DNA of 64,000 nt. Source: an uncultured bacterium. GTDB taxonomy: Bacteria; Lernaellota; Lernaellaia; Lernaellales; Lernaellaceae. Below, in pieces: positions 8,075-41,793 of the stretch. The stretch's first letter is position 1. Every line of letters begins with the position of its first letter. The notes beneath the pieces are model-generated. The model saw only the letters and a list, made by a program, of their open reading frames with translations. It ran no database searches and was not told the DNA's origin. The stretch covers positions 2,276 through 66,275 of the forward strand of contig CAZHPN010000002.1 in assembly GCA_964534375.1 (NCBI GenBank). Direction: 5' to 3'. The position numbers were made by a program, and so were the translations under genes.

Positions 8075-8247
8075 GAGGCGTTCCGTTCGCCACGATGCTT
8101 CGTCATGATCGTCCTCGCCTCTGAAAAAGTTCTATTTTCGCCGGCACGTTACCAACGTTTGGAGCCTTTTCCTATCCGGTCCGCGCCACGTTGAAACAAG
8201 GGCGCGTTGCCGCCATAATCGCGCGGCTTAGCACAAGGGAGCCCGGC

Positions 8248-9453
8248 ATGCGCGGAAATCTCGTCATCGGCCAATCCGGCGGCCCGACCGCCGTCATCAA
8301 TGCGTCGCTCGTCGGCGTGATTCAGGAAGCGAAAAAACATGCGGAGTTCGGCCAGCTTTACGGCATGCGGTTCGGCATTCAGGGCCTGCTCGACGAAAAC
8401 CTGATCGATCTGCGCGCCGAGAGCGAGGCGACGTTGGAACTGCTCAAGGTCACGCCCTCGTCGGCGCTCGGTTCGTGCCGCGTGAAACTCACCGACGAGC
8501 ATCTGCCGCAGATTCTCGCGGTGCTGCGGAAATATGATATCCGCTATTTCTTTTACATCGGCGGCGACGATTCGCAGAATACGACGCATCGCGTGGTCGA
8601 ATACGCAAAGGCGCAGGGCTACGAATTGGGCGGCATCGGCATTCCGAAAACCGTGGACAACGACCTGTTCGGCACCGACCACACGCCGGGCTACGGCTCG
8701 GCGGCGCGCTACGTGGCGCTGTCGGCGCAGCAGGGCGGCATTTTGGCGCGCGACATGTGCCAGGTCGATCCGGTGCTGGTTTATCAGGCCGTCGGCCGCG
8801 ACGCCGGGTGGCTGGCCGCCGCCGCGGCGCTCGCGAAAAAGTACGAGGAAGATCCGCCGCATTTGATCTACATCCCCGAGCGGCCTTTCAGCAAGGAAAA
8901 ATTCTGCGCCGATGTCGAACGCTGCTACGCCAAATACGGCTTCGTCTCGATCGTCATCGGCGAGGGCATCGCTTACGCCGACGGCTCGCCGGTTTCGGGC
9001 ACGCAAACCTTCGACAAATTCGGCAATCCGGAATTCGGCGCGATGGGCGGCGTCGCGGCGGCGACGGTCGTCAAAAAAATCGCCTGCGACTGCCTCGACG
9101 CGCGCGGCGAATTCCAGATCGTCGAATCGCTGCAAATGGCCGGCGCCGACCGCGTCTCGCTCGTCGATCGCGCCGAAGCGTACGAAGCGGGCGCCGAGGC
9201 CGCGCGCTGGGCCGCCGCCGGCCGCTCGGGCGTGATGGTCGCCTTCGAACGCGAGCCGGGCGCCGAATATCGCATCAAATGCGTGCCCGTGCCGCTCACG
9301 CGCGTCAACGAGGGCAAGCAGACCATGCCCGCGCATTTCATCGACGACAAAAACAGCATCGTCACCGAAGCCTTTTTGCAATACCTGCGCCCGCTCGTCG
9401 GCGAGTTGCCGCCGATGGGCCGGCTGGCGTATAAGAGGGTTGCCACAAAATAG
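8248..9453 (+). CDS. pfp: Pyrophosphate-dependent 6-phosphofructokinase (PFK family, GGDD type)
   Basis: ATG at 8248 behind AAGGGAG. Motifs GQSGGPTAVINAS, YIGGDDS (Gly to Asp substitution characteristic of PPi-PFK) and PKTVDNDL. Confidence 0.85.
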   Translation: MRGNLVIGQSGGPTAVINASLVGVIQEAKKHAEFGQLYGMRFGIQGLLDENLIDLRAESEATLELLKVTPSSALGSCRVKLTDEHLPQILAVLRKYDIRYFFYIGGDDSQNTTHRVVEYAKAQGYELGGIGIPKTVDNDLFGTDHTPGYGSAARYVALSAQQGGILARDMCQVDPVLVYQAVGRDAGWLAAAAALAKKYEEDPPHLIYIPERPFSKEKFCADVERCYAKYGFVSIVIGEGIAYADGSPVSGTQTFDKFGNPEFGAMGGVAAATVVKKIACDCLDARGEFQIVESLQMAGADRVSLVDRAEAYEAGAEAARWAAAGRSGVMVAFEREPGAEYRIKCVPVPLTRVNEGKQTMPAHFIDDKNSIVTEAFLQYLRPLVGELPPMGRLAYKRVATK

Positions 9454-13368: not shown

Positions 13369-13666
13369 CTTCCCTCCGGTGTTAGAGTGAACAGCTCAAG
13401 TTGCGATTATTTTATCAGCAAATGTTCCAATATGTCAAGGAAAGTTGACGGAAAGCAATGGAATGGCGCCAAATTAACTGTCGTTCGCGTCTGTGTCGAC
13501 GCATTATCTCGCAAAATCGACGTCCCAGTCGGCCGACTACCTGGACGTTTCGGTCTTTCGTCGTTCGCGGGCGCGCGGTTCGAGGCGATTGGGGCGGTGG
13601 CCGATAACGGGATTTCGTCGTATGCTGCGTTTGCCGGGTCAAATTCGCTTTTCTGAGGTTGACGAG

Positions 13667-14551
13667 ATGAGGCAAAAGAACGCGGCGATTGCGTCGCCCG
13701 CGCAGAGCCGTTTCTTCACTGCACTGTGTCTTCTGGCGCTGCTCGCGGCTTGCTCCCCGATCACCTACAATCGTTATCAGCCGGCGCAAACCATGGGCGA
13801 AGGGCAATTCAAGCTGGCGGCGTCCGCGGAATTCGGCAAGGAAATGGCAGCCAACGTCCAGACGAGCCTGGCGGCCCAGATGGACCAGAAAGTGCTCGCC
13901 TGGTCGACGAGCCATCCGCTGCCGGGCGGGAGGACGCTCGGCGCCGCCGGCGTCGGACCGCCGAGTTCCGTCGGCATTTTGAATCTGCCCGCGCTCAGTG
14001 ATCCCGTGCCGCAAGCGAACGTCTATTTCGCGTACGGCCTGACGAACACGCTCGACCTCGAAGGTTCGATTTCGACCGCGCCCTACTTTCGCTTCAACGC
14101 CAAAGCGCAGGTGTGGCAATTTGGCTCGCGCGGCGCCGTCGCCGTCGCGCCGGGCGTCGGTTACTTGCCGTTCAGCGAATCCGCGAGCGGGTCCGGCGGC
14201 AGAGTCAAGGACAAATACAGCGGCTACGCGGCGACGGCGGAGCTGCCGGTGGTCGTCGGCTGGCAGTATCACGTTGTCTCGCCGTACGTGGGCGTGCTGC
14301 TCGCGTACAATCACATCGGCCTGAACTTCTCGCGCGTCGACTCCGATTTCACGCCGGCGTTCTCCGGTTTCCTGACCGCGGATTACGACCTGTTCAGCGT
14401 CGGGCCGATGGTCGGCGTGCAACTCAAATTCGGCCCGTTCATCCTGACACCGGAGCTCATCGCGCTCTACGCGCACGGGGCCGGCAGCGGTCTCGTGCTG
14501 CCGCATTCGTTTTTCCTCTCGCCGGGCCTGCAATTGGGCGGGCAATGGTAG
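13667..14551 (+). CDS. Lipoprotein, beta-barrel-like; paralog family copy 3
   Basis: ATG at 13667 behind GAGG. Lipobox LLAACSP plus PITYNRYQPAQTMGEGQFKLAAS. C-terminus SPGLQLGGQW. It is similar along its length to 9474-10286 but carries insertions. Confidence 0.65.
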   Translation: MRQKNAAIASPAQSRFFTALCLLALLAACSPITYNRYQPAQTMGEGQFKLAASAEFGKEMAANVQTSLAAQMDQKVLAWSTSHPLPGGRTLGAAGVGPPSSVGILNLPALSDPVPQANVYFAYGLTNTLDLEGSISTAPYFRFNAKAQVWQFGSRGAVAVAPGVGYLPFSESASGSGGRVKDKYSGYAATAELPVVVGWQYHVVSPYVGVLLAYNHIGLNFSRVDSDFTPAFSGFLTADYDLFSVGPMVGVQLKFGPFILTPELIALYAHGAGSGLVLPHSFFLSPGLQLGGQW

Positions 14552-14559
14552 CAAGGCGG

Positions 14560-14830
14560 AGGGCTAAAAAGCCGGGCATCTTCACCTCTCCCGCTGGGAC
14601 AGGTCGCCGAGTGCAACGAGGCGGGCGAGGGTGAATGCCGATGGGGCCGCCACCCCAGTCCTCTCTCAGGGGGAGAGGGAGCATGAACCTCTCCCTCCGG
14701 GAGAGATCGCCCGCAGGCTGGGTGAGGGCATCTTCACCTCTCCCCCTGGGAGAGGTCGCCGCGCGAAGCGCGGCGGGTGAGGGCGCTCACCCCATCCCTC
14801 TCCCAGAGCGAGAGGGAGGTTGAAAATCGA
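14560..14830. repeat. Cluster of REP-like palindromic repeats (two ~60-bp copies plus GGGAGAGG-type palindromes)
   Basis: The unit gggcatcttcacctctccc[g/c]ctggga[c/g]aggtcgccg...gcggg[c/t]gaggg[tgaa/cgct] occurs at ~14573 and ~14732. Each copy folds as ttcacctctccc / gggagaggtgaa. Between them lie cctctctcagggggagagggag and cctctccctccgggagag. The cluster sits between convergent gene ends. Confidence 0.5.
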
Positions 14831-14891
14831 CGCCGCCCCGGGGGCGGCATCGATTCCAATCACCTGTCGGTTCGGCGGCTTTTCGGTCGGT

Positions 14892-17800
14892 TCACCGGGC
14901 CCGCGGCGCGGCCTGACTGGTCTTTTTCTTGCTTCCGCCGCTACAGGCTTGCTCCTGGCATGTCGCCGGCGGGATGCAGACTTCGCAAACGGCGCCGCCG
15001 GTCCCGCAAGCGCCGGAGTCGGTTCCGAGCTGGCACGTGCCGGTGTTGTCGCAGCAGCCGTTCGGGCACGACGTGGCGTCGCACACGCATTGGAAGCTCA
15101 GGCATTCGGCGCCAGAGGCGGTGCAATTTTGGCAAACCACGCCGCCCGTGCCGCAGTTGGAGTTGTCGCCGCCAGTTTGGCAGTTGACGCCGCTGCAGCA
15201 GCCGGACGGACACGAATTGGCGTCGCAGACGCACGCGCCGCCCGAGCATTCCTGACCGCCGGCGCACGTCGTGCAGGCCGCGCCGCCCGCGCCGCAGTTG
15301 CTGGGGCTGGCGGCCATGCAGACATTGCTCGCGCAGCAGCCGGCGCACGTCCCGTCGCACGCGCACTGCTGGTTCGTGCAACTATCTCCCAAATCGTTGC
15401 AATTCTGGCACGCGCCGCCGGCCTGTCCGCAGAGAGAGGGCGCCGTGCCGGCATAGCACGTGTTCCCGCTGCAACAGCCGTTGATCGTTGCGCACGACGC
15501 TTGCGTGCAGATGCATTGCCCGCCCGAGCACGTCTGGCCGTTGGCGCACGCGATGCAGGCGCCGCCGCCGGAGCCGCACTCGGCATCCGTGACCGGATTC
15601 ACGCAGGTCGACCCGTTGCAACAACCGCTCGCGCAGGCGCTGGTGTCGCAGACGCATTGATTGCCCACGCAATCGTTGCCCGCGCTGCACGTCTGACAGG
15701 CCTGGCCGTTGGTTCCACAGGCGCTGGGGCTGCCGGCAGTCTGGCAATTGCCGGTGTTGTCGCAGCAGCCCGTCGGGCAGGAACCCGACGCCCCCGGCGT
15801 GCAGGTGCACGTGCCGAGCACGCATTCCTGACCGCTGGCGCACGCGCCGCAGATGGCGCCGCTCGCGCCGCAATACGTGGTGTTCTCATTGTCGTAGATA
15901 ATGCACGGCCCAGCCGGCGTCCGGCAACATCCCGTATTGCACGTATTCGAGTTGCAGACGCACCCGCCGGCCACGCACTGGGCGCCGATTGCGGTGCAAT
16001 TCGTGCACGCCGCGCCGGCGGTTCCGCAATCCGCGTCGGCGCCGGAGGTCACGCAATTGCCGCCGTCGCAGCAACCCGAGACCGCCGCGCACGCCGTCGC
16101 GTCGCAGACACAGGCGCCGGACGCGTTGCAGATCTGTCCGGGGGCGCAGGAGAAGCAGGCCGTGCCGCCCGTGCCGCACGAGCCGGCGCTCTCGCCGCTA
16201 TAGACCTCGCACGGTCCGAGCGGCGACACGCAACAGCTTGCGGCGCACGAGGTCGCGTTGCATACGCAGGCGCCACTTTGACATTCTAATCCGCTGTCGC
16301 ACGAGACGCAGGGGGCGCCGTCCGCGCCGCATTGCGAATTGATATTGCCCTGCTCGCACGACGCCCCGGCGCAGCAACCCGAACTGCACGTCGTGTTGTC
16401 GCAGACGCATTCGCCGGCGACGCAATGGTTGCCCGCGCTGCAGACCTGACACTGCGCGCCGCCCGTGCCGCAGGCGCTGTCCGAGGTTCCGTCCTGGTTG
16501 CATTCGGGGGCTGAACCCGGGCAGCAACCGGTGCAGGTAATCGTGTCGCAGGTGCACTCGCCGCTCACGCAATCGACGTCGGTCGCGCACGCCGAACACG
16601 TCGCGCCGCCCAGGCCGCAGGAGCCGGGGCTTTGTTGGTCGAACGTTTCGCACGGCCCGGCGAATCCGGCGACGCAGCAGCCGTTCGCGCACGAAACGCC
16701 GTCGCAAATGCACACGCCGCCGTCGCCGCACCGATATCCGGCGTTGCACGAGATGCACACGGCGCCGCCCACTCCGCAGTCGGAATTCTGGTTGCCCGGC
16801 TCGCAGGTTGTGCCGTCGCAGCACCCGGAGGTGCATGCGGTCGTGTCGCAAACGCATTGCTGCTGCGGGCTGCACTCATTGCCCTCGGGGCAGGCTTGGC
16901 AACTCGCGCCGCCTTTGCCGCAAAAAGTGCTTGTTGTGCCGTCCTGGCAGTTGTTATTGGAGTCGCAGCAGCCTTTTGGGCACGAGGTTGGGTCACAGGT
17001 GCAGACGCCGTTTGCGCATTCTTGATTGGTCAGGCAACCCGCGCAGACCGCGCCGTCGGCGCCGCACGCCGTGACGCTCTGCTGCGCGATCGGCAGGCAA
17101 TTCCCGGCGACGCCGTAGCAGCAGCCCCCGGCGCATGTCGTCGCATCGCAGGCGCAGGTCCGGTTCGTGCAGGGCACGCCGTCGGCGCAGGCGACGCACG
17201 CCGCGCCGCCGCTGCCGCAGGCCGAACTATCCTCGGTGGTCACGCACTGGTTTCCCGAGCAGCAGCCCGTCGGGCAAGCCGTGGAGTCGCACGTGCAGGA
17301 GTTTTTCACGCATTCCTGCCCCGTGGCGCAGGGCGCGCACGCGACGCCGCCTGTGCCGCAGGCCGAATTATCCCCGGCGGTCACGCACTGGTTTCCGGAA
17401 CAGCAGCCGTTCGGGCATGACGTTGCGTCGCACACGCAGACGCCGTTCACGCATTCGGCGCCAAGGGCGGTGCAATCCTGGCAGACCGCGCCGCCGAGCC
17501 CGCAGTCGTTATTGGCTTCGTCCTGGTGGCAGCTGCCGGTGCTGTCGCAACAGCCGTTGTTGGCGCCCACGCAGTGCGCGGCGCAACTTTCGCACTGATA
17601 CGTCGCCGCATTGCAGTATTCTTGCGGCGTCATCGCCGTGCAATTGACGCAGGCTGTTCCGCCGGTCCCGCAGTAGTTGCTGTCGGTCCCCGTCAGGCAT
17701 GTGGCGCCGGAACAGCAACCTGTCGGGCAGTCTGATGGATCGCAGAAGTTCACGCAGGCCCCGTTTTGGCAGACGGTTCCGCTGGCGCAATCCTGGCACG

Positions 17801-18146
17801 GTTGGCCGTCCACGCCGCAAGCCGAGTTGCTGTTTCCCGGTTGGCAGCCTTCGTCGAGGCAGCAACCCGAGCAATATTTCGAGGCATGACAGGGGGGCGG
17901 GGTCGAGTCGTCATCGTCGGCGTTGTCGTCGTCGCCCGCGCTGTCGTTGTCGTTGTCATCGTCGTCGCCCGCGCTGTCGTCGTTGTCGTCGTTGTCGTTG
18001 TCGTCGTCGTCGATCGCGGAATCGTCATTGTCGTCGTCGGCCTGGCGCTGGCCCGTCAAGGATGCGGCGCCGCTGCCGCCGCCGCAGGACGTCGCCAAAA
18101 GCACCAACAAAGTCGCCAAGAGCGTGAATAACAACGCGCGTTTCAT
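14892..18146 (-). CDS. Giant exported lipoprotein: lipobox, poly-Asp linker, ~20 tandem cysteine-rich repeats (Myxococcus-type Cys-rich repeat-like)
   Basis: ATG at 18146 (MKRALLFTLLATLLVLLATSC) behind GAAGGTGG. Linker DDDNDDSAIDDDDNDNDDNDDSAGDDDDNDND. The body repeats C-x-CD-x-T-x-C-x-x-GCC-x-G-x-x-C-x(3-7)-CG-x-GG-x-x-C-x-x-C roughly every 45 aa. Antisense ORFs in this region are artefacts of the repeat DNA. Confidence 0.75.
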   Translation of the reverse strand: MKRALLFTLLATLLVLLATSCGGGSGAASLTGQRQADDDNDDSAIDDDDNDNDDNDDSAGDDDDNDNDSAGDDDNADDDDSTPPPCHASKYCSGCCLDEGCQPGNSNSACGVDGQPCQDCASGTVCQNGACVNFCDPSDCPTGCCSGATCLTGTDSNYCGTGGTACVNCTAMTPQEYCNAATYQCESCAAHCVGANNGCCDSTGSCHQDEANNDCGLGGAVCQDCTALGAECVNGVCVCDATSCPNGCCSGNQCVTAGDNSACGTGGVACAPCATGQECVKNSCTCDSTACPTGCCSGNQCVTTEDSSACGSGGAACVACADGVPCTNRTCACDATTCAGGCCYGVAGNCLPIAQQSVTACGADGAVCAGCLTNQECANGVCTCDPTSCPKGCCDSNNNCQDGTTSTFCGKGGASCQACPEGNECSPQQQCVCDTTACTSGCCDGTTCEPGNQNSDCGVGGAVCISCNAGYRCGDGGVCICDGVSCANGCCVAGFAGPCETFDQQSPGSCGLGGATCSACATDVDCVSGECTCDTITCTGCCPGSAPECNQDGTSDSACGTGGAQCQVCSAGNHCVAGECVCDNTTCSSGCCAGASCEQGNINSQCGADGAPCVSCDSGLECQSGACVCNATSCAASCCVSPLGPCEVYSGESAGSCGTGGTACFSCAPGQICNASGACVCDATACAAVSGCCDGGNCVTSGADADCGTAGAACTNCTAIGAQCVAGGCVCNSNTCNTGCCRTPAGPCIIYDNENTTYCGASGAICGACASGQECVLGTCTCTPGASGSCPTGCCDNTGNCQTAGSPSACGTNGQACQTCSAGNDCVGNQCVCDTSACASGCCNGSTCVNPVTDAECGSGGGACIACANGQTCSGGQCICTQASCATINGCCSGNTCYAGTAPSLCGQAGGACQNCNDLGDSCTNQQCACDGTCAGCCASNVCMAASPSNCGAGGAACTTCAGGQECSGGACVCDANSCPSGCCSGVNCQTGGDNSNCGTGGVVCQNCTASGAECLSFQCVCDATSCPNGCCDNTGTCQLGTDSGACGTGGAVCEVCIPPATCQEQACSGGSKKKTSQAAPRAR

Positions 18147-18603
18147 GTGAACCACCTTCTACCGGATCAACACGGCGTGTCTGACAACTGCAAGACTTGT
18201 GCCTCGTTCGGCGACGCCTTTGGTTCTCTAATCTACCACAATTTCAAATGGTTTCAACAACGGTCTTGCGGGCGATGGCCGAATGACTGTGAAAATTTTT
18301 CACAGAACTGGTAAAACTTTTCACTATTTTCTGCTCCCGTTCGTTCGCCGGTTCCCGTTCCGGTCTCCATGGGAAGACCCCTCTTCTCGCTCCGGAAGAC
18401 AAAATCTCCGCCTCTCTCCTCCCGGCGCAAAGTGCGTTGTTTTCCTGGCCGAACGGGGCGGCCGTGGCATTTTCTCTATTGTCTCGGACCGTCGAATGGA
18501 TCAAAATAAAAACCGGACGAAGGGCGTCTGGCGGGCGGAGCGGCGCCTGGAACGGACGCTCGAAATCAACAACTCGGCGACGAGCGACGATAAGGGCGGC
18601 GAC

Positions 18604-19737: not shown

Positions 19738-19832
19738 CGGCCCGCGCGGGCGGCGACCGTTGGCCGCCGTCCGACGAAATGCCGGCTCCGGATGGCCGCG
19801 GCGCCGCGTTTCCGCCTTGCCAAGCCCGCTTT

Positions 19833-19843
19833 CGTGTTACAAT
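19833..19843 (+). promoter_or_regulatory. Conserved promoter-like box TTTCGTG-T-TACAAT (extended -10 type) upstream of paralog 1
   Basis: tttcgtgttacaatatt with TACAAT at 19838-19843, 50 nt upstream of ATG 19888. An identical motif with identical spacing precedes paralog 2. Confidence 0.45.
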
Positions 19844-19887
19844 ATTTTCTCGGCCGGCAACCGAACGACACAAGGCGTCACTGTCCG

Positions 19888-21855
19888 ATGTTGACCTTCG
19901 ACCTTTGGGAAAAAATCCCCCGTTTGAACGGCGACGTGAATTATCTCGAACTTTCGCGCACCTTGAGCGAACCGGAAGTGCTGATTCTCTCTCGCGTCAA
20001 CGGCCGGCTGCCGCTGGGCGAGATCGTCTCCAGCCTGCGCTACGAACGCGATTACCTCGCGCGCATCGTGGCGCGGTTGACGCGGCTGCACGCGTTGCTG
20101 TTCGACGATCCGCGCATCGCCGAGGAAATAACGGCCGAAATCGTCGATTTTCGCGGTGATTTCGCCCGGAGCGAAACGCGGGCGTCGCGTCCGCGAGGCG
20201 TCCGCGAACCGACCGCGCCCGACCCGCAGGAAGCGCCAGCGGCGGCTTGGGAACCGGAATGGGAGGCGCCGGCGGGCGAGCCGTCGACGGAGCCGGCGCC
20301 CGCGCCGGCGAGCGAGCCGGCGCCGGCGGCGCCGGAGCGATTCGCGGAATCGGGCAATTGGGACGTCGATTCGTTTTTCGCGCTGATCAATCGGCTGTAC
20401 GTGGAACGGCGCACGGGCCTCCTGCGCGTTTTTCGCGATCGGCGCACATACAAGACTTTCTATTTGGAGCGTGGGCGGATCGTCAATATCGCCTCGATGC
20501 CGTTCTCCGTCGCCGAATGCCTGGGCCGCGTCATTCAGCGGGCGGGCCTGATCGACCAGGCGAAGGTCATTGACTCGCTGCTCGCCGCCAAACGGACCGG
20601 CCAGCGTCAGGGCGAGGAACTGGTGGCGATGGGCGCGATCGACGGCGAGATCCTCTTCGAAATGCTGCGCGTGCAGATGGAGGTCAAGGCGACCGAGATC
20701 ATGGACTGGGCCCTGGGCGACTGGTCCTTCGAGGAAGCCGCGTCGCTGCCGGCCAGCCTGTCGCGCATCGACGTTTCCATGCCGCGGCTGCTGTTCAGCC
20801 TGGCTTGGAAGCGCTATCCCCACGGCCGCGTGCCGATGGAGTTGAAAAGCCGGCAGAACCTGTACATCGGCAAGCGCGTGCCGCCGACGTACACGCTGGA
20901 CGATTTCCATTTCGACGACGCGATGAAGAAGTTCTGCGGCATCGCCCTGGAACGGGACAACACGGTCAAACGCTTGTTCCTCGTCACGAATCTGAAGGCC
21001 GAAAAAACCTACAAGGTGACGTGGATTCTGCATCTGCTCGGCATTCTGGATTTCTTCGACGAGCCGCTCGAGAAACGCAACGCCCGCCGGATCGCCGAGC
21101 TCAGCAATCGCCTGCGCGAATTGGAGCACGGTTCGCCCTTTGACGGGTTGGGCGTCGCATGGACCGCGGATTCCAAAATGGTCCAGAATACGTACGTCCG
21201 GGCGGCGGCCGAGATGGACCATGCGATCGAGAACAGCGACGGGCCGGAGCGCCGTTTCGCGGAACAGATTCGCGAGCATCTCGACCGGGTTTATGAAACC
21301 ATCAAGACGCGCGAAGGCCGGCGAATCAGCCGCGAGAAGTTTCTCGAGGCGCCCGCGATTGCGGCGGGGGCCGAGGCGCGGCGGCGCGCCGGCGAAGAAT
21401 TTCTGTTCGGCGACGAGAATCCGAAGGCGGCGATCCCGGAATTCGAGGCGGCCATCGAAGTGATCGACAACCACGGCGAATACCTCGCCGAACTGGGCCT
21501 GGCGCGGTTCCAAGTCGAATACGCGGCGAACGGACCCGGCGTGGAAGACGCCCGCCGACTGATTCGCCGGGGGATCGCCGCCAGCCCGGAATCCGACGTC
21601 GTGCGCCTGTGCGAAGCGCTGATGTACAAAGAAGAGTACGAATTGGCCAAGGCGTTGGCGTCGCTCGCCCGCGCGCGGCAACTCAACCCGAACAATCGCC
21701 TCGCCGGCCTGCTGATCGAGGAGATCAACGCCGGTCGGCGGTCGGCGGCGCACGAGAACGCCGTGCGGGATTTTCTCGATCGCGACGCGACCCCTGCGCG
21801 AAAAACCGGGGGGGCCGCGCGCGGCAAACGCCCGGCGGACGGTTCGCCGAGTTAG
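19888..21855 (+). CDS. DUF4388 (PATAN-like) domain protein with degenerate J-domain and C-terminal helical/TPR-like region; paralog 1
   Basis: ATG at 19888. N-terminal domain, Pro/Ala/Glu linker, then a DUF4388-like segment GNWDVDSFFALINRLYVERRTGLLRV...YLERGRIVNIAS...ECLGRVIQRAGLI. J-like segment FDGLGVAWTADSKMVQNTYVRAAAEMDHAIENSDG, where HPD is replaced by HAI. Confidence 0.7.
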   Translation: MLTFDLWEKIPRLNGDVNYLELSRTLSEPEVLILSRVNGRLPLGEIVSSLRYERDYLARIVARLTRLHALLFDDPRIAEEITAEIVDFRGDFARSETRASRPRGVREPTAPDPQEAPAAAWEPEWEAPAGEPSTEPAPAPASEPAPAAPERFAESGNWDVDSFFALINRLYVERRTGLLRVFRDRRTYKTFYLERGRIVNIASMPFSVAECLGRVIQRAGLIDQAKVIDSLLAAKRTGQRQGEELVAMGAIDGEILFEMLRVQMEVKATEIMDWALGDWSFEEAASLPASLSRIDVSMPRLLFSLAWKRYPHGRVPMELKSRQNLYIGKRVPPTYTLDDFHFDDAMKKFCGIALERDNTVKRLFLVTNLKAEKTYKVTWILHLLGILDFFDEPLEKRNARRIAELSNRLRELEHGSPFDGLGVAWTADSKMVQNTYVRAAAEMDHAIENSDGPERRFAEQIREHLDRVYETIKTREGRRISREKFLEAPAIAAGAEARRRAGEEFLFGDENPKAAIPEFEAAIEVIDNHGEYLAELGLARFQVEYAANGPGVEDARRLIRRGIAASPESDVVRLCEALMYKEEYELAKALASLARARQLNPNNRLAGLLIEEINAGRRSAAHENAVRDFLDRDATPARKTGGAARGKRPADGSPS

Positions 21856-21967: not shown

Positions 21968-23980
21968 ATGCTGAGCTTCGACCTGTGGGAAAAAATCCCA
22001 AAATTAAACGGCGAACTGGATTACCTGGAGTTCTCGCGCACCTTGAGCGAGCCGGAGGTGATGATTCTGTCGCGCGTGAACGGCAGCAGTTCGCTCGGCG
22101 AAATTGTCACGGGCTTGCGTTACGATCGCGACCACCTGGTGCGGCTAGTCGCCCGCCTGGCGAACCGGCAGGCGCTGCTGTTCGACGATCCGCTCGTCGC
22201 CAGCGAACTCGCGACCGAAATCGCCGATCTTCGCGTCGATTTTACCGGCGCCCGCAAGCGAACGGCGCGGCCCCGCGTCGAACGGAAACAGACCGCGCCG
22301 GAAGCGGAGGCGGCGGAGCCGGACGCGGACCGGGCGACGGAACCGGCGGCGAATCGGGAGCCGGCGGGGCCGGCGGCGCCCGCGGCCGCGGCGGAGTGGA
22401 CCGAGCCGGCGCCGGCGCCGCCGGTCGAACCGGATAAATCCGCGGACGCGGCCATCGAGCCGGCCGCGCAGCCGCCGACGGCGGAGCGGTACGCGGAATC
22501 AGGCGAATGGGAGATCGATTCGTTTTTCTCGTTGGTCAATCGTTTGCACGGGGAGCGTCGCAGCGGCATTCTACGCGTTCACCGCGACGCCCGCACGTGC
22601 AAGGCCATTTATTTCGACCTCGGCTCCCTGGTTAATATCAGCTCGACGCCGTTCTCGGCGGCGGAGTGTCTGGGCCGCTTGATCGAACGCGCGGGCTACA
22701 TCGACCAGAAGAAGGTCGTCGAGTCGCTGGTGGCCGCCAAGGGCTCCGGACGGCGCCAGGGCGAAGAATTGGTGGCGATGGGCGCGATCCGCCGCGATCT
22801 GCTGGGCGCGATGCTGAGCGTGCAGGTGGAATACAAAGCCGCCGAGATTCTGGAATGGGGCCGGGGCTTCTGGACGTTCGAAGAGGCCTCGTCGTTGTTC
22901 GACCGCGTGTCGCGCATCGAAACGTCGGTTCCCCGGCTGTTGTTCAATTTGGTCTGGAAACGATATCCGGCCGCCCGCCTCGCCGACCAACTGCGGCAGC
23001 GCGGCGAAATGTACGTCGGCAAGACCGAGGCGCCGATCTATGAACTGGACGAATTCGGGTTCGGGGCGGCCCTGCGCAAGTTCGTGACGATCGCGATCGA
23101 GAAGGACAGTCCGCTGAAACGCGTGCTGGTCGTCAGCAATCTCAAGCCGGAACAAACCCAGCGCATGTTGTGGGCGTTGTACCTGACCGGCATGATGGGC
23201 TTCTACGACGATTCGCGCGAAGACCGCGGCGCCGCCCTCATCGTCGATCTCAATAACGAATTGAAGACGGTCGAGCGCGAGCCGTATTTCGACATCCTGC
23301 ACATTCATTGGACGGCCGACACGGCCATGGTCGAGAAATCGTATGCGCGCTTGTCGGCCGAAATGGAGCACGCCATCGCAACGACCGACGGCCTGGCGCG
23401 GCAGCTCAAAGAACGGATTTACGACTACGTCAAGACCGCCTACGAGGCCCTGCGGACCAAGGAAGGCCGGCGAGCCTACCGGCTGCGAAGATTCGACGAG
23501 GATTTCGTCATCTTCGGCGCCGAGATCTTGCGCCAAAAGGGCGAGAGCTACCTGTTCACCAAGGAAGATCCCGTGCAGGCCATTCAGGAGTTCGAGGGCG
23601 CCATCGAGGTCAATGATCGCAATGGCGAATACTACGCCGAACTGGGCCTGGCGCTGTTCCTCCGCGATTACGGCGGCCGCGGGCGAGGCGTCGATGAGGG
23701 CCGGCAATTGCTGCGCAAGGGCGTGGCCATGGCCTCGCAGTCGGAGGTCGTGCATCTGTGCCTGGCGATGATGCACCGCACCGAACGCCAGTACGCGAAA
23801 GCGTTGTCGTCATTGGAGCGCGTGCTGCAAATCAACCCGCAAAATCGCTTCGCCCGCATTGTGGCGAACGAAATCCGGAGCGGCGAAAAATCGGCCGAGC
23901 ACGAGGCGGCCGTCAAGCAATTCGTCGAACGGCATGCCGCCGTTCAACAAAAGAAGTCCACGGAAGCCGCGCCCCAATAA
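21968..23980 (+). CDS. DUF4388 (PATAN-like) domain protein with degenerate J-domain and helical/TPR-like region; paralog 2
   Basis: Same architecture as 19888-21855 (MLSFDLWEKIPKLNGELDYLEFSRTLSEPEV...). J-like segment YFDILHIHWTADTAMVEKSYARLSAEMEHAIATTDG. Confidence 0.7.
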   Translation: MLSFDLWEKIPKLNGELDYLEFSRTLSEPEVMILSRVNGSSSLGEIVTGLRYDRDHLVRLVARLANRQALLFDDPLVASELATEIADLRVDFTGARKRTARPRVERKQTAPEAEAAEPDADRATEPAANREPAGPAAPAAAAEWTEPAPAPPVEPDKSADAAIEPAAQPPTAERYAESGEWEIDSFFSLVNRLHGERRSGILRVHRDARTCKAIYFDLGSLVNISSTPFSAAECLGRLIERAGYIDQKKVVESLVAAKGSGRRQGEELVAMGAIRRDLLGAMLSVQVEYKAAEILEWGRGFWTFEEASSLFDRVSRIETSVPRLLFNLVWKRYPAARLADQLRQRGEMYVGKTEAPIYELDEFGFGAALRKFVTIAIEKDSPLKRVLVVSNLKPEQTQRMLWALYLTGMMGFYDDSREDRGAALIVDLNNELKTVEREPYFDILHIHWTADTAMVEKSYARLSAEMEHAIATTDGLARQLKERIYDYVKTAYEALRTKEGRRAYRLRRFDEDFVIFGAEILRQKGESYLFTKEDPVQAIQEFEGAIEVNDRNGEYYAELGLALFLRDYGGRGRGVDEGRQLLRKGVAMASQSEVVHLCLAMMHRTERQYAKALSSLERVLQINPQNRFARIVANEIRSGEKSAEHEAAVKQFVERHAAVQQKKSTEAAPQ

Positions 23981-24684: not shown

Positions 24685-25070
24685 AAAACGACGGCGACAA
24701 AACGCACTTGCAATCCGTTAACGGACGTTGGCGCCGACGCGCCATGGATATCCGTTTGGAAAAGAACTGTGCGGACCGCCTGCCGCGCCGGCGGACGACG
24801 CTGCCGGCGCAGCGACGAATCGCCCTTGTTTCCGACGGTTGCGCGCGGGGCGGCGCGTTTCGCTCTCTGCCGATAACTCGCGCGAACGGCGCGGAAAGCG
24901 GACCATTCGAAACCGAATGACAGAAAAGATCATCCAATAATAAACGACGGCTCGCCGGCGCGCCAATTTCCCTCTTTTTTTATCATTTTTCTTCCTTTTT
25001 GCGGAGTTTCTGGTATACTGCCTTAGGTCGGCGAATCGGCTTCTGTGAGGACAGAACGAGGGGAAGGTCG

Positions 25071-27608
25071 ATGCGCCGCGCCACCACGATGATTCTGATC
25101 CTCTTCCTCTGGACGCCGCTGTTTGTCGCGGCGTGCAGCCCCGCACCCGAACACCACCATCACCATCCGGTCGATGACGACGAGTCGCCCATGGACGACG
25201 ACACGTCGCCGAGCGACGACGACACCTCGCCCGCCGACGACGATGCGTCGCCGAGCGACGATGACGCATCGCCCGCCGACGACGATGCGTCGCCGAGCGA
25301 TGACGACCTGTCGCCCGCGGACGATGACGCCTCGCCGACCGACGACGATGCATCGCCCGCGGACGATGACGATGACGCGTCGCCGACGGATGACGATGCG
25401 TCGCCGAGCGATGACGACACCGCGCCTGCCGATGACGACACGGCGCCTGCCGACGACGACACCGCGCCGAGCGATGACGACACCTTGCCGGGCAACGGCG
25501 GCGATGACGACGACGATGACGACACGACGCCCGGCAACGGCGGCGATGACGACGACGACGACGACACGACGCCCGGCAATAGCGGCGATGACGACGACGA
25601 CGACACGACGCCGGGCAACGGCGGCGATGACGACGACGACTCCGCGCCGACCGATGACGACGCCTCGCCTGCCGACGACGATGACAACGACGACATGACG
25701 GTCGACGTGCAATACGTGGCCGGCGGCACCTATTCCGGCGCCGCATTGACGCTGGACGCCGCGGGCAACGCCACGGTCATCTCCGGCAAATCCCGCGATC
25801 TGCTCGCCTACACGGAAAGCGGCGGCAATTTCAGCGAGCAACTGGCGGCGTTCGGCGTTTACGCCAACCCATCGGCGACGCTCGGGCCCGATGGCGCCCA
25901 GCACGTGGCCTTCTACGATTGGATCAACAAGAACCTGCGTTATGCCACCAACGCCGGCGGCGAATGGACGGATGTCCTGGTGGACGGAACGGGCGACGTC
26001 GGCCATTACAGCGGCATCGCGCTGGACGCGGGCGGCGCCGTCCACATCGCGTACACGGTGCAAACCGCCGGCGTGCCCAGCGGCGTGCGCCACGCGACGA
26101 ACGCGAGCGGCGCCTGGCAGACGGACGAGATCGCGGACGGCTCGCAAATCGGCGACTATCCGCAAATCGCGATCGACGCCAACGGCCTGCGGTATGTCAC
26201 GTACAACGACGACGGCAACGTGCAGGTTTGCCTCGCGAATTGGAACGGGGCGGCCTGGAGCAACTTCGCACTGCCGTATTCGACGCCGGACGGTCGGGCG
26301 AGCGCCGTGGCCGTCGGGAGCGATGGAACGCTGAATGTTCTTTACCATCAAGTCAGCGGCGGCATGGTGTACGCCACCGGCACGTACAGCAGCCTCGACT
26401 ACAACCTGATCAACAGCGTCGACAACGTCGCCGATACGCTGGCGATGGCGCTCGACGGCAACGGCGTGGCGCATATTACGTACGCCATCGGCACGAACGA
26501 AGTAGGCTACGGCAACAACTCCGGGGGGACATGGAGCCTGCAAACCATCGGCGCCGGTTACCCCGTGTTCATCGCCGCCAATTCGGTGAATGACGTGGCG
26601 ATCTCGCTCGCGCGGATCGGCGTTGCGCGCAAGCAAGGCGCGACGTGGACAGAGACATACTTCGACTACGGCTTCACGGCCGCGGCGCCGGCCATGCGCA
26701 ACGATGCGCAGGCCCGCCAACATTTCGTTTACCTGGAAAACGAAACCGCGACGCTGCGTCATGCGACGGACGCGACCGGCGGCTGGACCTTCGAGTCGAT
26801 CGCGACCCCGATCGGAACCGGCATGCTTGACAGCGGCCTGGTCGTCGACGCGTCCGGAGGCTTGCACGTCTCATTTTACAACGGCGCGAATCAAAACCTG
26901 AATTACGCGACCAATGCGGGCGGGACGTGGGCGACCAGTGTCATCGACGGCGGTCCGACTGTCGGCCAGGCGAGCGCCATGGCCAGGGACGCCGCCGGCG
27001 TGTTGCACGTGAGTTATTCGGACGACGGAAACGGTGCTCTGAAGTATGCAACCAACGCTGGCGGCGCCTGGCAAACGACGATGGTCGACAGCAGCGGCGC
27101 GATCGGGGCGTCGGCAATCGCCGTCGACGGCGCCGGCACGGCGTACATCGCCTATAGCAATCAGACCGTCGGCGCGATCGAACTGGCGACCGGCGGGATC
27201 GGCGGCTTCTCCGTCCAGACCGTCGATGCCGCCGGCGGCGCCTCGGTGTCGCTCGTGCTCGACGCCAACGGCCAGCCGCAGTTGGCGTACGTCGGCGCCG
27301 GGCTGCGCCACGCTGCGTTGGTCGGTTCGACCTGGCAGGTTGACACGGTCGACCCCGCAGGGACGGCCGCCGGAACCGCGATCGCGACCTGGGGCAACCT
27401 GGGGCTGGCGATCGCCTATCAAAACGGCGCCGCGCTCAGCCTAGCGCTCGGCCGGCCCGGCAATTGGTGGCTGTTGCCGGTCGATACGCTCGACAATGTC
27501 GGCCAACAACCGTCGCTGGTCGCCGCGCCCGACGGCTCCCGCTACGACGTCGGCTATCTCGGCCAGGGCGGCGTCTGGCTGGCGACGGTGACGTTCACGG
27601 CGAACTAG
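25071..27608 (+). CDS. Exported lipoprotein: lipobox, His5 tract, ~200-aa (DDDxSP)n acidic linker, beta-propeller-like repeat domain
   Basis: ATG at 25071 behind GAGGGGAAGG. A TATACT box lies at 25014-25019. Signal ...LFVAACSP. Linker HHHHHPVDDDESPMDDDTSPSDDDTSPADDDASP... (about 25 units), then DDDDDDDTTPGNGG x4. The body repeats ~45 aa of the form YATNAGGxWxTxxVD...G...S[IL]A[LV]D..G..H[IV][AS]Y. Confidence 0.75.
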   Translation: MRRATTMILILFLWTPLFVAACSPAPEHHHHHPVDDDESPMDDDTSPSDDDTSPADDDASPSDDDASPADDDASPSDDDLSPADDDASPTDDDASPADDDDDASPTDDDASPSDDDTAPADDDTAPADDDTAPSDDDTLPGNGGDDDDDDDTTPGNGGDDDDDDDTTPGNSGDDDDDDTTPGNGGDDDDDSAPTDDDASPADDDDNDDMTVDVQYVAGGTYSGAALTLDAAGNATVISGKSRDLLAYTESGGNFSEQLAAFGVYANPSATLGPDGAQHVAFYDWINKNLRYATNAGGEWTDVLVDGTGDVGHYSGIALDAGGAVHIAYTVQTAGVPSGVRHATNASGAWQTDEIADGSQIGDYPQIAIDANGLRYVTYNDDGNVQVCLANWNGAAWSNFALPYSTPDGRASAVAVGSDGTLNVLYHQVSGGMVYATGTYSSLDYNLINSVDNVADTLAMALDGNGVAHITYAIGTNEVGYGNNSGGTWSLQTIGAGYPVFIAANSVNDVAISLARIGVARKQGATWTETYFDYGFTAAAPAMRNDAQARQHFVYLENETATLRHATDATGGWTFESIATPIGTGMLDSGLVVDASGGLHVSFYNGANQNLNYATNAGGTWATSVIDGGPTVGQASAMARDAAGVLHVSYSDDGNGALKYATNAGGAWQTTMVDSSGAIGASAIAVDGAGTAYIAYSNQTVGAIELATGGIGGFSVQTVDAAGGASVSLVLDANGQPQLAYVGAGLRHAALVGSTWQVDTVDPAGTAAGTAIATWGNLGLAIAYQNGAALSLALGRPGNWWLLPVDTLDNVGQQPSLVAAPDGSRYDVGYLGQGGVWLATVTFTAN

Positions 27609-39108: not shown

Positions 39109-39300
39109 GCGCCAGACCTAAGTCGTTAAAGAAACTCAACGGCAGCAATCCTCAGGACGCATGGGGCACGTAGTGAACGCTTTTTTTGCGACGCAATGCG
39201 GCAGAAAAAACGCGTTCGCGTCGTGTTCCGCTTCCGGGCGCCGCCGAGCCGGTTCATTTTTCCAGGATTCTTGAATCCGCATCTTTGAAAGGAGGGCGTG

Positions 39301-41793
39301 ATGGCAGTTGACAGCAGATGGGCCTCGAGTTCGCTCAGGCGCTCATCGGTCGCGCGCAAGGCGGTGGTCGGCGCGATCTTTCTCGGCGTTTTGTTCGCCG
39401 CCGTTTCCGCGTTCGCCAGCGAAGCGGAACTGGTTGTTCCCGACCTGAGCAGCCAGACGTTCGTCGGCGGCGTTTCGGGCAGCGCGCTGCTGTGGGGCGG
39501 CATGGTGATCTGCCTGCTGGGCATGGCCTTCGGCCTGATCCAGTTCATGCAGATCCGCAATCTGCCGGTGCACAAAGCGATGCTCGAAATCTCGGAACTG
39601 ATTTACGAAACCTGCAAGACCTACCTGATCCAGCAAGGCAAATTCCTCGCCATGCTGTGGGCGTTCATCGCCGCGATCATGGTGGTCTATTTCGGCTTCC
39701 TGAAAGAAGGCTACAGCGCCATTCAGGTGGTCATCATCATCATCTTCAGCATCGTCGGCATTCTCGGCAGCTATTCGGTGGCGTGGTTCGGCATCCGAAT
39801 CAACACGTTCGCGAACTCGCGCACGGCGTTCGCCGGCCTGCAGGGCATGCCGTATCCGACGATGGCCATCCCGCTGAAGTCGGGCATGAGCATCGGCATG
39901 CTGCTGATCAGCGTCGAGCTGGTCATGATGCTGTTCATCCTGCTCGTGATTCCGGGCGCGTACGCCGGCCCGTGCTTCATCGGCTTCGCGATCGGCGAGT
40001 CGTTGGGCGCGGCCGCATTGCGCATCGCCGGCGGCATTTTCACGAAGATCGCCGACATCGGCTCCGACCTGATGAAGATCGTCTTCAAGATTAAAGAAGA
40101 CGACGCGCGCAACCCGGGCGTCATCGCGGACTGCACGGGCGACAACGCGGGCGATTCGGTCGGCCCGACGGCGGACGGCTTCGAAACCTACGGCGTCACC
40201 GGCGTGGCGTTGATCTCGTTCATTCTGCTCGCGGTGAAGAGCAGCGAAGTGCAGGTGCAGTTGCTGGTGTGGATCTTCGTGATGCGCATCGGCATGATCG
40301 TCACCAGCGCGCTGTCGTACTTCATCAACGGCGCGATTTCCAAGGCCCGTTACGGCAAGGCGACGAAGTTCAATTTCGAGAGCCCGCTGACCACGCTGGT
40401 GTGGCTGACGTCCGCGATCTCGATCGGCATGACGTACCTGCTGTCCGCCTCGCTCGTTCCGGGTCTGGGCGACGGTTCGCAATGGTGGAAACTCGCGTCG
40501 ATCATCACCTGCGGCACCCTGGCCGGCGCGATCATTCCGGAATTGGTCAAGGTCTTCACCTCGACGAACTCCGGCCACGTGAAAGAAATCGTCACGGCGT
40601 CGCGCGAAGGCGGCGCTTCGCTCAACATCCTCTCCGGCCTCGTCGCCGGCGACTTCAGCGCCTACTGGATGGGCGGCGCCATTATCGCCCTCATGGCCGC
40701 GGCCTGGGGCGTGAGCACGTTGGGCCTCGACAGCCTCATGTCGTATCCGGCGATCTTCGCCTTCGGTCTGGTCGCGTTCGGCTTCCTGGGCATGGGCCCC
40801 GTGACGATCGCGGTCGACTCGTATGGCCCGGTGACCGACAATGCGCAGTCGGTCTTCGAACTCTCGACGATCGAGACGCTGCCCGGCATCAAAGAGGACA
40901 TCAAGAAGCAGTACGGCTACGAGCCGAATTTCGACAAGTGCAAGGCGTATCTCGAAGAAAACGACGGCGCGGGCAACACCTTCAAGGCGACCGCGAAACC
41001 CGTGCTGATCGGCACGGCCGTCGTCGGCGCCACGACGTTGATCTTCTCGATCATCCAAGTGCTGATTGGCAACGCCGCGCATGGAGCGGTCAATCTCGAC
41101 GCCGCGCGCCAATTGGTCACGGAAGGCCTGTCGATTCTGAATCCGCTGTTCCTGCTCGGATTGATCACGGGCGGGGCCGTGATTTTCTGGTTTGCCGGCG
41201 CGTCGACGCAAGCCGTCTCCACCGGAGCCTACCGCGCGGTCGAGTTCATCAAGAAGAACATCAAACTCGACGGCACGGCCGAGAAAGCGTCGGTATCCGA
41301 CAGCAAGAAGGTGGTGGAAATCTGCACGCAGTACGCGCAGAAGGGCATGTTCAACATCTTCCTCGCGGTGTTTTTCTCGACGCTCGCCTACGCCTGCGTC
41401 AACGCCTACTTCTTCATCGGCTACCTGATCTCGATCGCGATCTTCGGCTTGTACCAGGCGATCTTCATGGCCGACGCTGGCGGCGCCTGGGACAACGCGA
41501 AGAAGCTGGTCGAGACCGACATGTCGTACGGCGGCAAGGGCACCGAGCTGCACGCCGCGACCGTCGTGGGCGACACGGTCGGCGATCCGTTCAAAGACAC
41601 CTCGTCGGTGGCGATGAACCCCATCATCAAGTTCACGACCCTGTTCGGTCTGCTCGCGCTCGAGCTGGCGATCACCATCGACTCGACGGCGGTGAAGGTC
41701 AGCCTCGCGCTGGCGTTCCAGCTCGTGGCGATGTTCTTCGTCTATCGGTCGTTCTACGGGATGCGCATCCCGGTGCTGCAAGACAAGAAATAA
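39301..41793 (+). CDS. hppA: Membrane-bound H+(or Na+)-translocating pyrophosphatase
   Basis: ATG at 39301 behind AAAGGAGGG. V-PPase motifs GGIFTKIADIGSDLMKI and DCTGDNAGDSVGPTADGFETY, plus 15-17 TM helices. About 50 extra N-terminal residues form a predicted signal/TM segment. Confidence 0.9.
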   Translation: MAVDSRWASSSLRRSSVARKAVVGAIFLGVLFAAVSAFASEAELVVPDLSSQTFVGGVSGSALLWGGMVICLLGMAFGLIQFMQIRNLPVHKAMLEISELIYETCKTYLIQQGKFLAMLWAFIAAIMVVYFGFLKEGYSAIQVVIIIIFSIVGILGSYSVAWFGIRINTFANSRTAFAGLQGMPYPTMAIPLKSGMSIGMLLISVELVMMLFILLVIPGAYAGPCFIGFAIGESLGAAALRIAGGIFTKIADIGSDLMKIVFKIKEDDARNPGVIADCTGDNAGDSVGPTADGFETYGVTGVALISFILLAVKSSEVQVQLLVWIFVMRIGMIVTSALSYFINGAISKARYGKATKFNFESPLTTLVWLTSAISIGMTYLLSASLVPGLGDGSQWWKLASIITCGTLAGAIIPELVKVFTSTNSGHVKEIVTASREGGASLNILSGLVAGDFSAYWMGGAIIALMAAAWGVSTLGLDSLMSYPAIFAFGLVAFGFLGMGPVTIAVDSYGPVTDNAQSVFELSTIETLPGIKEDIKKQYGYEPNFDKCKAYLEENDGAGNTFKATAKPVLIGTAVVGATTLIFSIIQVLIGNAAHGAVNLDAARQLVTEGLSILNPLFLLGLITGGAVIFWFAGASTQAVSTGAYRAVEFIKKNIKLDGTAEKASVSDSKKVVEICTQYAQKGMFNIFLAVFFSTLAYACVNAYFFIGYLISIAIFGLYQAIFMADAGGAWDNAKKLVETDMSYGGKGTELHAATVVGDTVGDPFKDTSSVAMNPIIKFTTLFGLLALELAITIDSTAVKVSLALAFQLVAMFFVYRSFYGMRIPVLQDKK

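Follow-up and report, generated by a model that had tools for sequence, protein, structure and literature searches.

A predicted envelope lipoprotein composed largely of 20 ten-cysteine modules in an uncultured member of the Lernaellota

A stretch of 64,000 nucleotides from an uncultured bacterium assigned to the family Lernaellaceae of the phylum Lernaellota (GenBank assembly GCA_964534375.1, contig CAZHPN010000002.1, positions 2,276 to 66,275; hereafter the window, whose own numbering is used throughout) carries on its minus strand a gene for a 1084-amino-acid protein that consists largely of cysteine-rich repeats. The questions raised by this locus are whether these repeats belong to a described family and what a protein made of little else might do. 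Tandem cysteine-rich extracellular repeats are a known architecture of bacterial surfaces, but the module found here, which contains ten cysteines, matches no family of Pfam-A or NCBIfam and has no solved or significantly similar structure. The window protein is the longest array of this module seen, with 20 units and 201 cysteines, and its most plausible reading is that of a disulfide-laced rod held by a lipid anchor and an acidic tether. Within this reading, we infer lipidation, the formation and connectivity of the disulfides, and the rigidity, length, location, and role of the rod.

Organisation of the repeat array

The array extends from residue 86 to residue 1068 and comprises exactly 20 tandem units of 44–53 amino acids (mean 49), each with the spacing Ca-x4-Cb-x3-CcCd-x4-7-Ce-x8-10-Cf-x6-Cg-x2-Ch-x5-Ci-x4-Cj. 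Neighbouring units are connected by a single-residue C-x-C joint in 17 of the 19 junctions, whereas units 1 and 2 are joined by three residues and units 2 and 3 by two. The 201 cysteines, which amount to 18.5% of the protein, are Cys21 and 200 cysteines in 20 groups of ten. An original prediction made from the letters of this DNA had recognised that one cysteine-rich repeat, present about 20 times, makes up nearly the whole of an exported lipoprotein, and this was borne out. Its estimates of eight cysteines per repeat and about 160 in total were too low, as its pattern omitted the ninth cysteine (Ci) and split the C-x-C junction. A hidden Markov model (HMM) of the unit, applied to the six-frame translation of the window, recovered all 20 units with scores of 20–43 bits and found no match outside the array.

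The invariant columns of the unit are the cysteines and three glycines, namely the one before the CC pair, the one of CG, and the second one of GG. Mean amino-acid identity between units is 43%, and 29% outside the cysteine positions. Since the units have diverged, the array is old and neither a recent amplification nor an assembly artefact; recent amplification was considered as an origin and rejected, units 4 and 5 being the only ones still recognisable as a tandem repeat at the DNA level (Table 1). The array is under selection for its scaffold and not for its surface. Its composition is strongly biased: 77 residues are Asp/Glu and 7 are Lys/Arg (a net charge of about -70), aromatic residues number 16, and small or polar residues together with cysteine make up 83%.

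Gene, export signals, and overlapping reading frames

The minus-strand open reading frame (ORF) spans 14892..18155, and the ATG at 18146 yields the 1084-amino-acid protein that had been proposed for 14892–18146. An alternative GTG (18155) located 9 nt upstream would yield 1087 amino acids, but as it falls within the Shine-Dalgarno-like GAAGGTGG, the ATG is the likely start. The promoter-like site further upstream (Table 1) is the sole one between 14500 and 18400, where shuffled sequences contain 0.3 on average.

The high-GC DNA of the window produces many long spurious ORFs, and a chance ORF or an artefact of repeat assembly therefore had to be considered. Either origin is extremely improbable for this gene, which has an in-frame G + C content at third codon positions (GC3) of 0.83, a Shine-Dalgarno-like site, and a signal peptide, encodes 20 units that each score 20–43 bits, and has 159 homologues with E-values down to 1.5e-47. 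The divergence of the units at the DNA level also makes a collapsed or expanded assembly unlikely. The gene is real.

This does not apply to the ORFs of 100–489 amino acids that overlap the gene in other frames, the longest of which (489 amino acids) lies at 14820..16289 on the plus strand. Shuffling of the codons, which keeps codon usage and destroys the order of the repeats, gave antisense open stretches of 458 ± 120 codons versus 465 observed, and open stretches of 368–816 codons also lie antisense to eight ordinary genes of the window. Because shuffled codons give equally long ones and ordinary genes have them too, the antisense ORFs are a by-product of GC3-rich codon usage and not of the repetitive DNA, to which they had been ascribed. 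The accompanying advice that these long ORFs should stay unannotated holds, and GC-rich antisense ORFs across 14892–18146 should not be called.

The N-terminus, MKRALLFTLLATLLVLLATS-C21, conforms to the lipobox pattern: MKR-ALLFTLLATLLVLLA-TS-C21 matches the PROSITE-type expression [LIVMFWSTAG]2-[LIVMFYSTAGCQ]-[AGS]-C, and the positively charged n-region, the hydrophobic h-region, and an invariant lipobox cysteine within about 35 residues are those of a bacterial lipoprotein processed by Lgt and LspA. Cys21 is therefore a putative lipidation site. It is followed by GGGSGAASLTGQRQA and then by a 45-residue Asp/Asn run, so that 27 Asp and 7 Asn are found among the 64 residues of the linker (residues 22–85), in agreement with the lipid anchor and polyAsp linker proposed originally. 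The linker DNA shows tandem periodicities of 6, 33, and 45 nt at 17907–18039. At the other end of the protein, the short C-terminal tail contains neither a hydrophobic sorting tag nor a head domain. According to a preprint (bioRxiv 10.1101/2021.01.05.425367), many outer-membrane lipoproteins have disordered N-terminal linkers, which are important for the sorting of these proteins.

Comparison with known families

Searched as a whole, the 1084-amino-acid protein matched no Pfam-A family at E ≤ 1 and obtained only sub-threshold NCBIfam matches, mostly on the poly-Asp linker. Among these, EbpS and ZrgA (18 and 11 bits) covered residues 6–80, which are signal peptide and poly-Asp linker, with scores far under the cut-offs, and were dismissed. 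Since whole-protein hmmscan searches can hide short repeats in long cysteine-rich proteins, the comparison with Pfam and NCBIfam was repeated at E ≤ 10 with isolated pieces, namely one window unit and a segment of four units, neither of which matched anything in either database.

The original prediction had likened the pattern to the Myxococcus cysteine-rich repeat and had named TIGR02232 and EGF-like profiles for comparison. The Myxococcus acidic repeat (TIGR02232 myxo_disulf_rpt / PF13948 DUF4215) resembles the ten-cysteine array in being tandem, acidic, cysteine-rich, and extracellular, but its motif, CGDG...E-CDDGN...GDGC...C, has four cysteines. Membership of the window units in this family or among EGF-like repeats, which draws on such surface likeness and on the co-occurrence of TIGR02232 repeats with the ten-cysteine module in three homologues (P0008, P0018, and P0019), is highly improbable. 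TIGR02232 peptides taken from these three homologues served as positive controls and matched TIGR02232 at 8e-15 to 2e-13 (49.7–54.3 bits; cut-off 20.8 bits) and PF13948 at 1.6e-8 to 7e-6 (cut-off 27 bits), whereas the window units gave nothing at E ≤ 10. An hhalign comparison of the unit profile (133 sequences) with the TIGR02232 peptides resulted in a probability of 0.13%. EGF-type HMMs, which describe a six-cysteine pattern, matched neither the unit nor the four-unit segment at E ≤ 10, nor the whole protein at E ≤ 1. As isolated units and profile comparison were both negative, kinship to the Myxococcus repeat and to EGF is rejected at the level of sequence profiles. The repeats thus show no significant similarity to the profiles named in the original prediction, and no known adhesin or keratin-like family, which it had raised as the alternative, explains them better.

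In the three control homologues, the TIGR02232 repeat is combined with units of a long type that bear an extra four-cysteine hairpin. The repeat of P0008 (residues ~128–165) was missed by the whole-protein NCBIfam scan at E ≤ 0.01, while the isolated 38-residue peptide matched at 3e-14; such short repeats can escape whole-protein hmmscan, probably through composition or bias handling. Annotation based on whole-protein HMM scans may accordingly overlook short cysteine repeats.

The single hint of kinship was a remote resemblance to the bacterial Stig1-like modules (PF04885, Stigma-specific STIG1-like family; cut-off 24.1 bits). They share with the ten-cysteine unit a C-terminal two thirds of the form C-V-x8-9-CG...C-x5-C-x4-C, which ends in a G-Q-x-C-x-x-G-x-C hairpin, but they have eight cysteines instead of ten, lack the C-x4-C-x3-CC head, and contain CG-x-CG-x-x-C where the window unit has CG-x-GG-x-x-C-x-x-C. 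PF04885 did not match the window protein at E ≤ 10, whereas the control homologue P0104 matched it at 7.6e-9. An hhalign comparison of the unit profile with the four Stig1-like modules of P0104 gave a probability of 73% (E 3e-5), which refers to the C-terminal 31 columns only and to a template profile of four sequences. Distant kinship to bacterial Stig1-like modules, as opposed to membership, is plausible judging from these profiles. In P0104 itself, four Stig1-like eight-cysteine modules strictly alternate with four ten-cysteine units (residues 182–541).

Literature searches on the module, on bacterial Stig1-like repeats, and on Asp-rich lipoprotein linkers revealed no description of the ten-cysteine module. 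The Myxococcus repeat is found in the stalk of the TraA receptor, to which the array may be compared in its way of working. In TraA, cysteine-rich repeats lie between a variable domain and a MYXO-CTERM tag (PMC13184517). That protein has a C-terminal tag as anchor and a head domain, whereas the window protein has a predicted N-terminal lipid anchor and no head.

Predicted structure

Structure prediction with AlphaFold2 was based for four units (residues 237–432) on an alignment of 46 four-unit segments from the window protein and its homologues, and for the single unit on 133 aligned units. The four-unit model had a mean predicted local distance difference test score (pLDDT) of 95.0, with no residue below 70, and a predicted template modelling score of 0.67; the single unit reached a pLDDT of 92.2. 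Each unit of the larger model consists of two β-hairpins and short bridges around CG...G-x-x-C, and the hairpins are stacked. The modelling proposed with the original prediction resulted in confident hairpin modules. Co-loss of cysteines across relatives did not yield disulfide partners, all ten cysteines being nearly always present.

Fold searches against the PDB with the single-unit and four-unit models gave no significant match, and PDB sequence searches with both unit profiles detected no resembling sequence; the match of a 23-residue engineered conotoxin (E 0.05–0.13) was judged to be due to chance. Every one of the weak and non-significant fold neighbours is an extracellular rod with a disulfide ladder: the TNFR cysteine-rich domains (CRDs) of 4-1BB and OX40, the furin-like region of IGF1R and the insulin receptor, the cysteine-rich domain of CaSR, meckelin, and mastigoneme. 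TNFR-type and furin-like domains (4-1BB, OX40, IGF1R, CaSR) share with the modelled unit small, stacked β-hairpin modules that are pinned by disulfides and aligned into rods, but they are parts of eukaryotic receptors, and a TNFR module has six cysteines instead of ten. No significant structural superposition on solved CRDs was obtained that would place the unit in the TNFR/furin-like fold. The ten-cysteine module is a widespread domain to which none of Pfam-A, NCBIfam, and the PDB contains a match.

Distribution and architecture of the module

An exact look-up of the window protein in a collection of 15 billion proteins returned no record. With E ≤ 1e-3 as the limit, a word-seeded search retrieved the 159 homologues, and the best of them shares 40% identity with the window protein over 49% of the length of the latter. 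Their named sources are Myxococcota/“Deltaproteobacteria”, Acidobacteriia, and Chloroflexota metagenome-assembled genomes (MAGs), and all are hypothetical proteins. When 1.84 billion cluster representatives were searched exhaustively with the profile, 1,628 matched at E ≤ 1e-3, a lower bound on the spread of the module; 596 of them reached E ≤ 1e-10, and 56 reached E ≤ 1e-30. Most of the proteins with the module are predicted lipoproteins, and beside the array they usually have further N- or C-terminal regions, in some cases with domains known to Pfam. The family, defined by profiles A1 and A3, has the spacing C-x4-C-x2-5-CC-x4-7-C-x7-10-CG-x2-G-x2-C-x2-C-x5-8-C-x4-6-C with a glycine before the CC pair, and all 20 window units agree with it. 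Across 1005 units from 121 proteins, the ten cysteine positions are kept at 92–100%, except for position j (79%), whose lower value is probably caused by alignment slippage.

The 253 sampled relatives contain 3–15 units each, so that the window protein with its 20 units is the largest of 254. Proteins that consist of repeats only number 32 in this set, including the window protein, and the other 31 have 4–8 units; the array alone is hence a viable product. A permissive lipobox expression, which is a regular-expression match and not a validated signal peptide, was found within the first 45 residues of about two thirds of 120 homologues. When these 120 and the query are considered, at least 100 amino acids follow the array in 86 of the 121 proteins, and at least 150 precede it in 30. 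Depending on the relative, Pfam recognises Lcl_C, C2, NHL, Kelch, peptidase C11, or MopE-type motifs as partners. The metagenomic protein P0077 has a lipobox and a DDDxSP linker in the style of the window protein, followed by Lcl_C, five cysteine units, and a second Lcl_C. In P0104, P0008, P0018, and P0019, the cysteine-rich modules are shuffled in the manner of building blocks.

Most window junctions have a Cj-Ca spacer of a single residue, but many relatives have one of 3–6 residues, and since the spacer varies in this manner, the module is best delimited from Ca to Cj. The repeat period of relatives clusters at 46–53, 54–58, and 66–69 residues, the longest type being the one with the extra four-cysteine hairpin. 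Definition of the module would provide a name and boundaries for a domain in hundreds of large lipoproteins that are now “hypothetical”.

The company the module keeps bears on one alternative function, that of a surface adhesin or binding rod whose repeat surface would offer twenty-fold valency towards a ligand such as a polysaccharide, another cell, or a mineral or cation surface. The pairing with binding or enzymatic domains in relatives (Lcl_C, C2, NHL, Kelch, peptidase C11) agrees with such a role, as do the strong variability of the non-cysteine positions (29% identity), which is expected for diversified surfaces, and the strongly acidic surface, which could bind cations or minerals. There may also be a remote link to the plant STIG1 family, which includes ligand-binding proteins. 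However, cysteine and glycine are the only invariant columns and no other conserved surface position indicates a site of binding, no conserved partner gene lies nearby, and the location at the cell surface is itself conjectural. A binding function was thus considered unlikely, albeit the strongest of the functional rivals.

Possible function

The preferred reading, whose chances we put slightly above even, is an envelope lipoprotein in which a polyanionic tether, about 64 residues long with 27 Asp, carries a stiff rod of 20 small ten-cysteine modules, each folding on its own, that functions as spacer, coat, or brush. The signal peptide would direct the protein to Sec export, and lipidation of Cys21 would anchor it in a membrane, which would be the outer membrane under the E. 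coli sorting rule because glycine occupies position +2. In an oxidising envelope, each module could then form five disulfides across its two β-hairpins. Self-contained five-disulfide modules are suggested by the even number of cysteines per unit and by the completeness of the first and last units. The one-residue C-x-C junctions (17 of 19) would permit the array little flexing, and the product would be a hydrophilic, protease-resistant, and strongly negative rod that might serve, in the envelope or on the surface of the cell, as a spacer, coat, or brush element. TNFR-type domains measure about 2–3 nm per module, and by likeness to them the rod would be about 40–60 nm long. A typical periplasm would be too shallow for such a rod to stand upright, which hints at surface exposure. 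Coat, brush, or spacer is the most economical role, since the rod is the whole product here, unlike in most relatives, where further N- or C-terminal regions come with the array. The rigid, tethered disulfide rod of the original prediction is therefore reasonable in light of the signal peptide, the ten near-invariant cysteines, the one-residue junctions, and the pLDDT of 95, but unproven.

Several points weigh against this reading. The host may be an anaerobe with a less oxidising envelope, as the window encodes an H+-pyrophosphatase (H+-PPase) and two phosphofructokinase paralogues, and the CxC, CC, and CxxC motifs, combined with a composition nearly free of aromatic residues, would also suit metal-thiolate proteins. 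Comparison of the gene neighbourhoods of four homologues revealed nothing shared, and hence no conserved neighbourhood that would point to a process. Without a head domain, nothing is evident that the rod would space or display.

Two of these points lead to a different function, a giant metallothionein-like sink of the envelope in which 200 reduced thiols would bind soft metals (Cu+, Zn2+, Cd2+) in thiolate clusters and the poly-Asp linker would add binding of hard cations, resulting in metal buffering or detoxification outside the cytoplasm. This is in line with a cysteine content of 18.5%, the occurrence of CxC, CC, and CxxC in every unit, the very small number of aromatic and histidine residues, a possibly anaerobic organism, and the MopE-type “putative metal-binding motif” PF11617 that occurs elsewhere in the chains of some relatives. 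PF11617, however, occupies a different part of those relatives, and the module adjoins other domain types in many architectures. Metallothioneins are disordered without metal, whereas regular β-hairpins were predicted here in its absence (pLDDT 92–95) and the spacing of cysteines and glycines is rigidly conserved, with exactly ten cysteines per module. No metallothionein family model of Pfam or NCBIfam matched the protein at E ≤ 1, and its 1084 amino acids and signal peptide contrast with the small size of metallothioneins. A metal sink is thus improbable.

A bolder form of the rod reading, to which we attach a similarly low likelihood, would be that of a new disulfide-rich fold, multiplied in this lineage to give a polyanionic rod of tens of nanometres that has about 100 disulfides and a lipid anchor but no head and forms a surface coat or brush, a bacterial equivalent of the cysteine-periodic surface antigens of protists, or else a 200-thiol extracytoplasmic metal store. 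Large membrane-anchored surface proteins made almost wholly of periodic CxxC/CxC-rich repeats, which presumably provide a coat resistant to proteases, are known as variant-specific surface proteins of Giardia and as immobilisation antigens of ciliates. Those proteins are eukaryotic, have other repeat motifs, and use transmembrane or glycosylphosphatidylinositol anchors. Whichever function applies, so extreme an array raises the questions of how about 100 disulfides are folded in one chain and whether such arrays act as rigid spacers. Its practical value is modest and would lie in a repeat scaffold that is compact and appears to be very stable.

Genomic context

The features of the locus are listed in Table 1. 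Two further genes of the window encode lipoproteins or lipoprotein candidates with long Asp-rich linkers in front of unrelated domains, so that the poly-Asp tether characterises this genome and is not specific to the cysteine-rich protein. The occurrence of three poly-Asp-tethered lipoproteins within 13 kb suggests a lineage-wide surface design and poses the question of what effect the long poly-Asp tethers of several neighbouring lipoproteins have on the cell surface. The H+-PPase and the two phosphofructokinases hint at an energy metabolism based on pyrophosphate. Identity of the H+-PPase to proteins of species-representative genomes does not exceed 79% (Desulfobacterota-like, Elusimicrobiota, Hydrogenedentes, Acidobacteriota, and Myxococcota MAGs), and the lineage therefore is poorly sampled. 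Rfam (gathering threshold) and tRNA scans of the whole window found nothing.

Table 1. Features of the cysteine-rich lipoprotein gene and of other genes in the window.
Feature	Position	Strand	Basis or remarks
Cysteine-rich lipoprotein coding sequence, 1084 amino acids	14892..18146 (stop codon included)	-	ORF, GC3 0.83, homologues
Short basic C-terminal tail SGGSKKKTSQAAPRAR and stop codon	14892..14942	-	Sequence
Array of 20 ten-cysteine units, residues 86-1068	14943..17891	-	Unit HMM, spacing, AlphaFold2
Units 4 and 5, DNA-level tandem repeat, period 141 nt, 75-81% matches	17117..17456	-	Sole stretch still similar as DNA
Low-complexity acidic linker, residues 22-85, ending in STPPP	17892..18083	-	Composition, tandem periodicities
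Predicted lipoprotein signal peptide, residues 1-21 (MKR n-region, hydrophobic core, lipobox L-A-T-S-C21)	18084..18146	-	Sequence, lipobox expression
Shine-Dalgarno-like GAAGGTGG	18152..18159	-	5 nt ahead of ATG at 18146; read from sequence
Sigma-70-like promoter candidate, TTGAAA-16-TAGATT with TG	18230..18257	-	About 85 nt upstream of start codon; consensus match only
Second lipoprotein, lipobox AAAS-C, Asp/Asn linker of about 130 residues	11995-13368	-	No Pfam match
Convergent gene between the two minus-strand lipoprotein genes; lipobox LLAAC, ends in ...LQLGGQW	13493-14551	+	No Pfam family
Adjacent paralogous DUF4388 genes, the second also with TPR repeats	19792-21855, 21968-23980	+	
Third lipoprotein candidate, FVAAC lipobox	24999-27608	+	No Pfam match after linker
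Membrane H+-pyrophosphatase and two phosphofructokinase paralogues	39298-41793, 8191-9453, 42444-43757	+	

In the third lipoprotein candidate, a His5 run is followed by (DDDxSPx)n and GGDDDDDDDTTPGN repeats that together exceed 150 residues. The linker of the second lipoprotein is followed by about seven β-propeller-like repeats of the form “VWGSSASDVFAVG...HYDGSSWS”. This propeller protein has 3061 relatives at E ≤ 1e-5 from mixed phyla, with identities of up to 49%, and a lipobox combined with a DDDxSP linker is present in 4 of its best 120 relatives.

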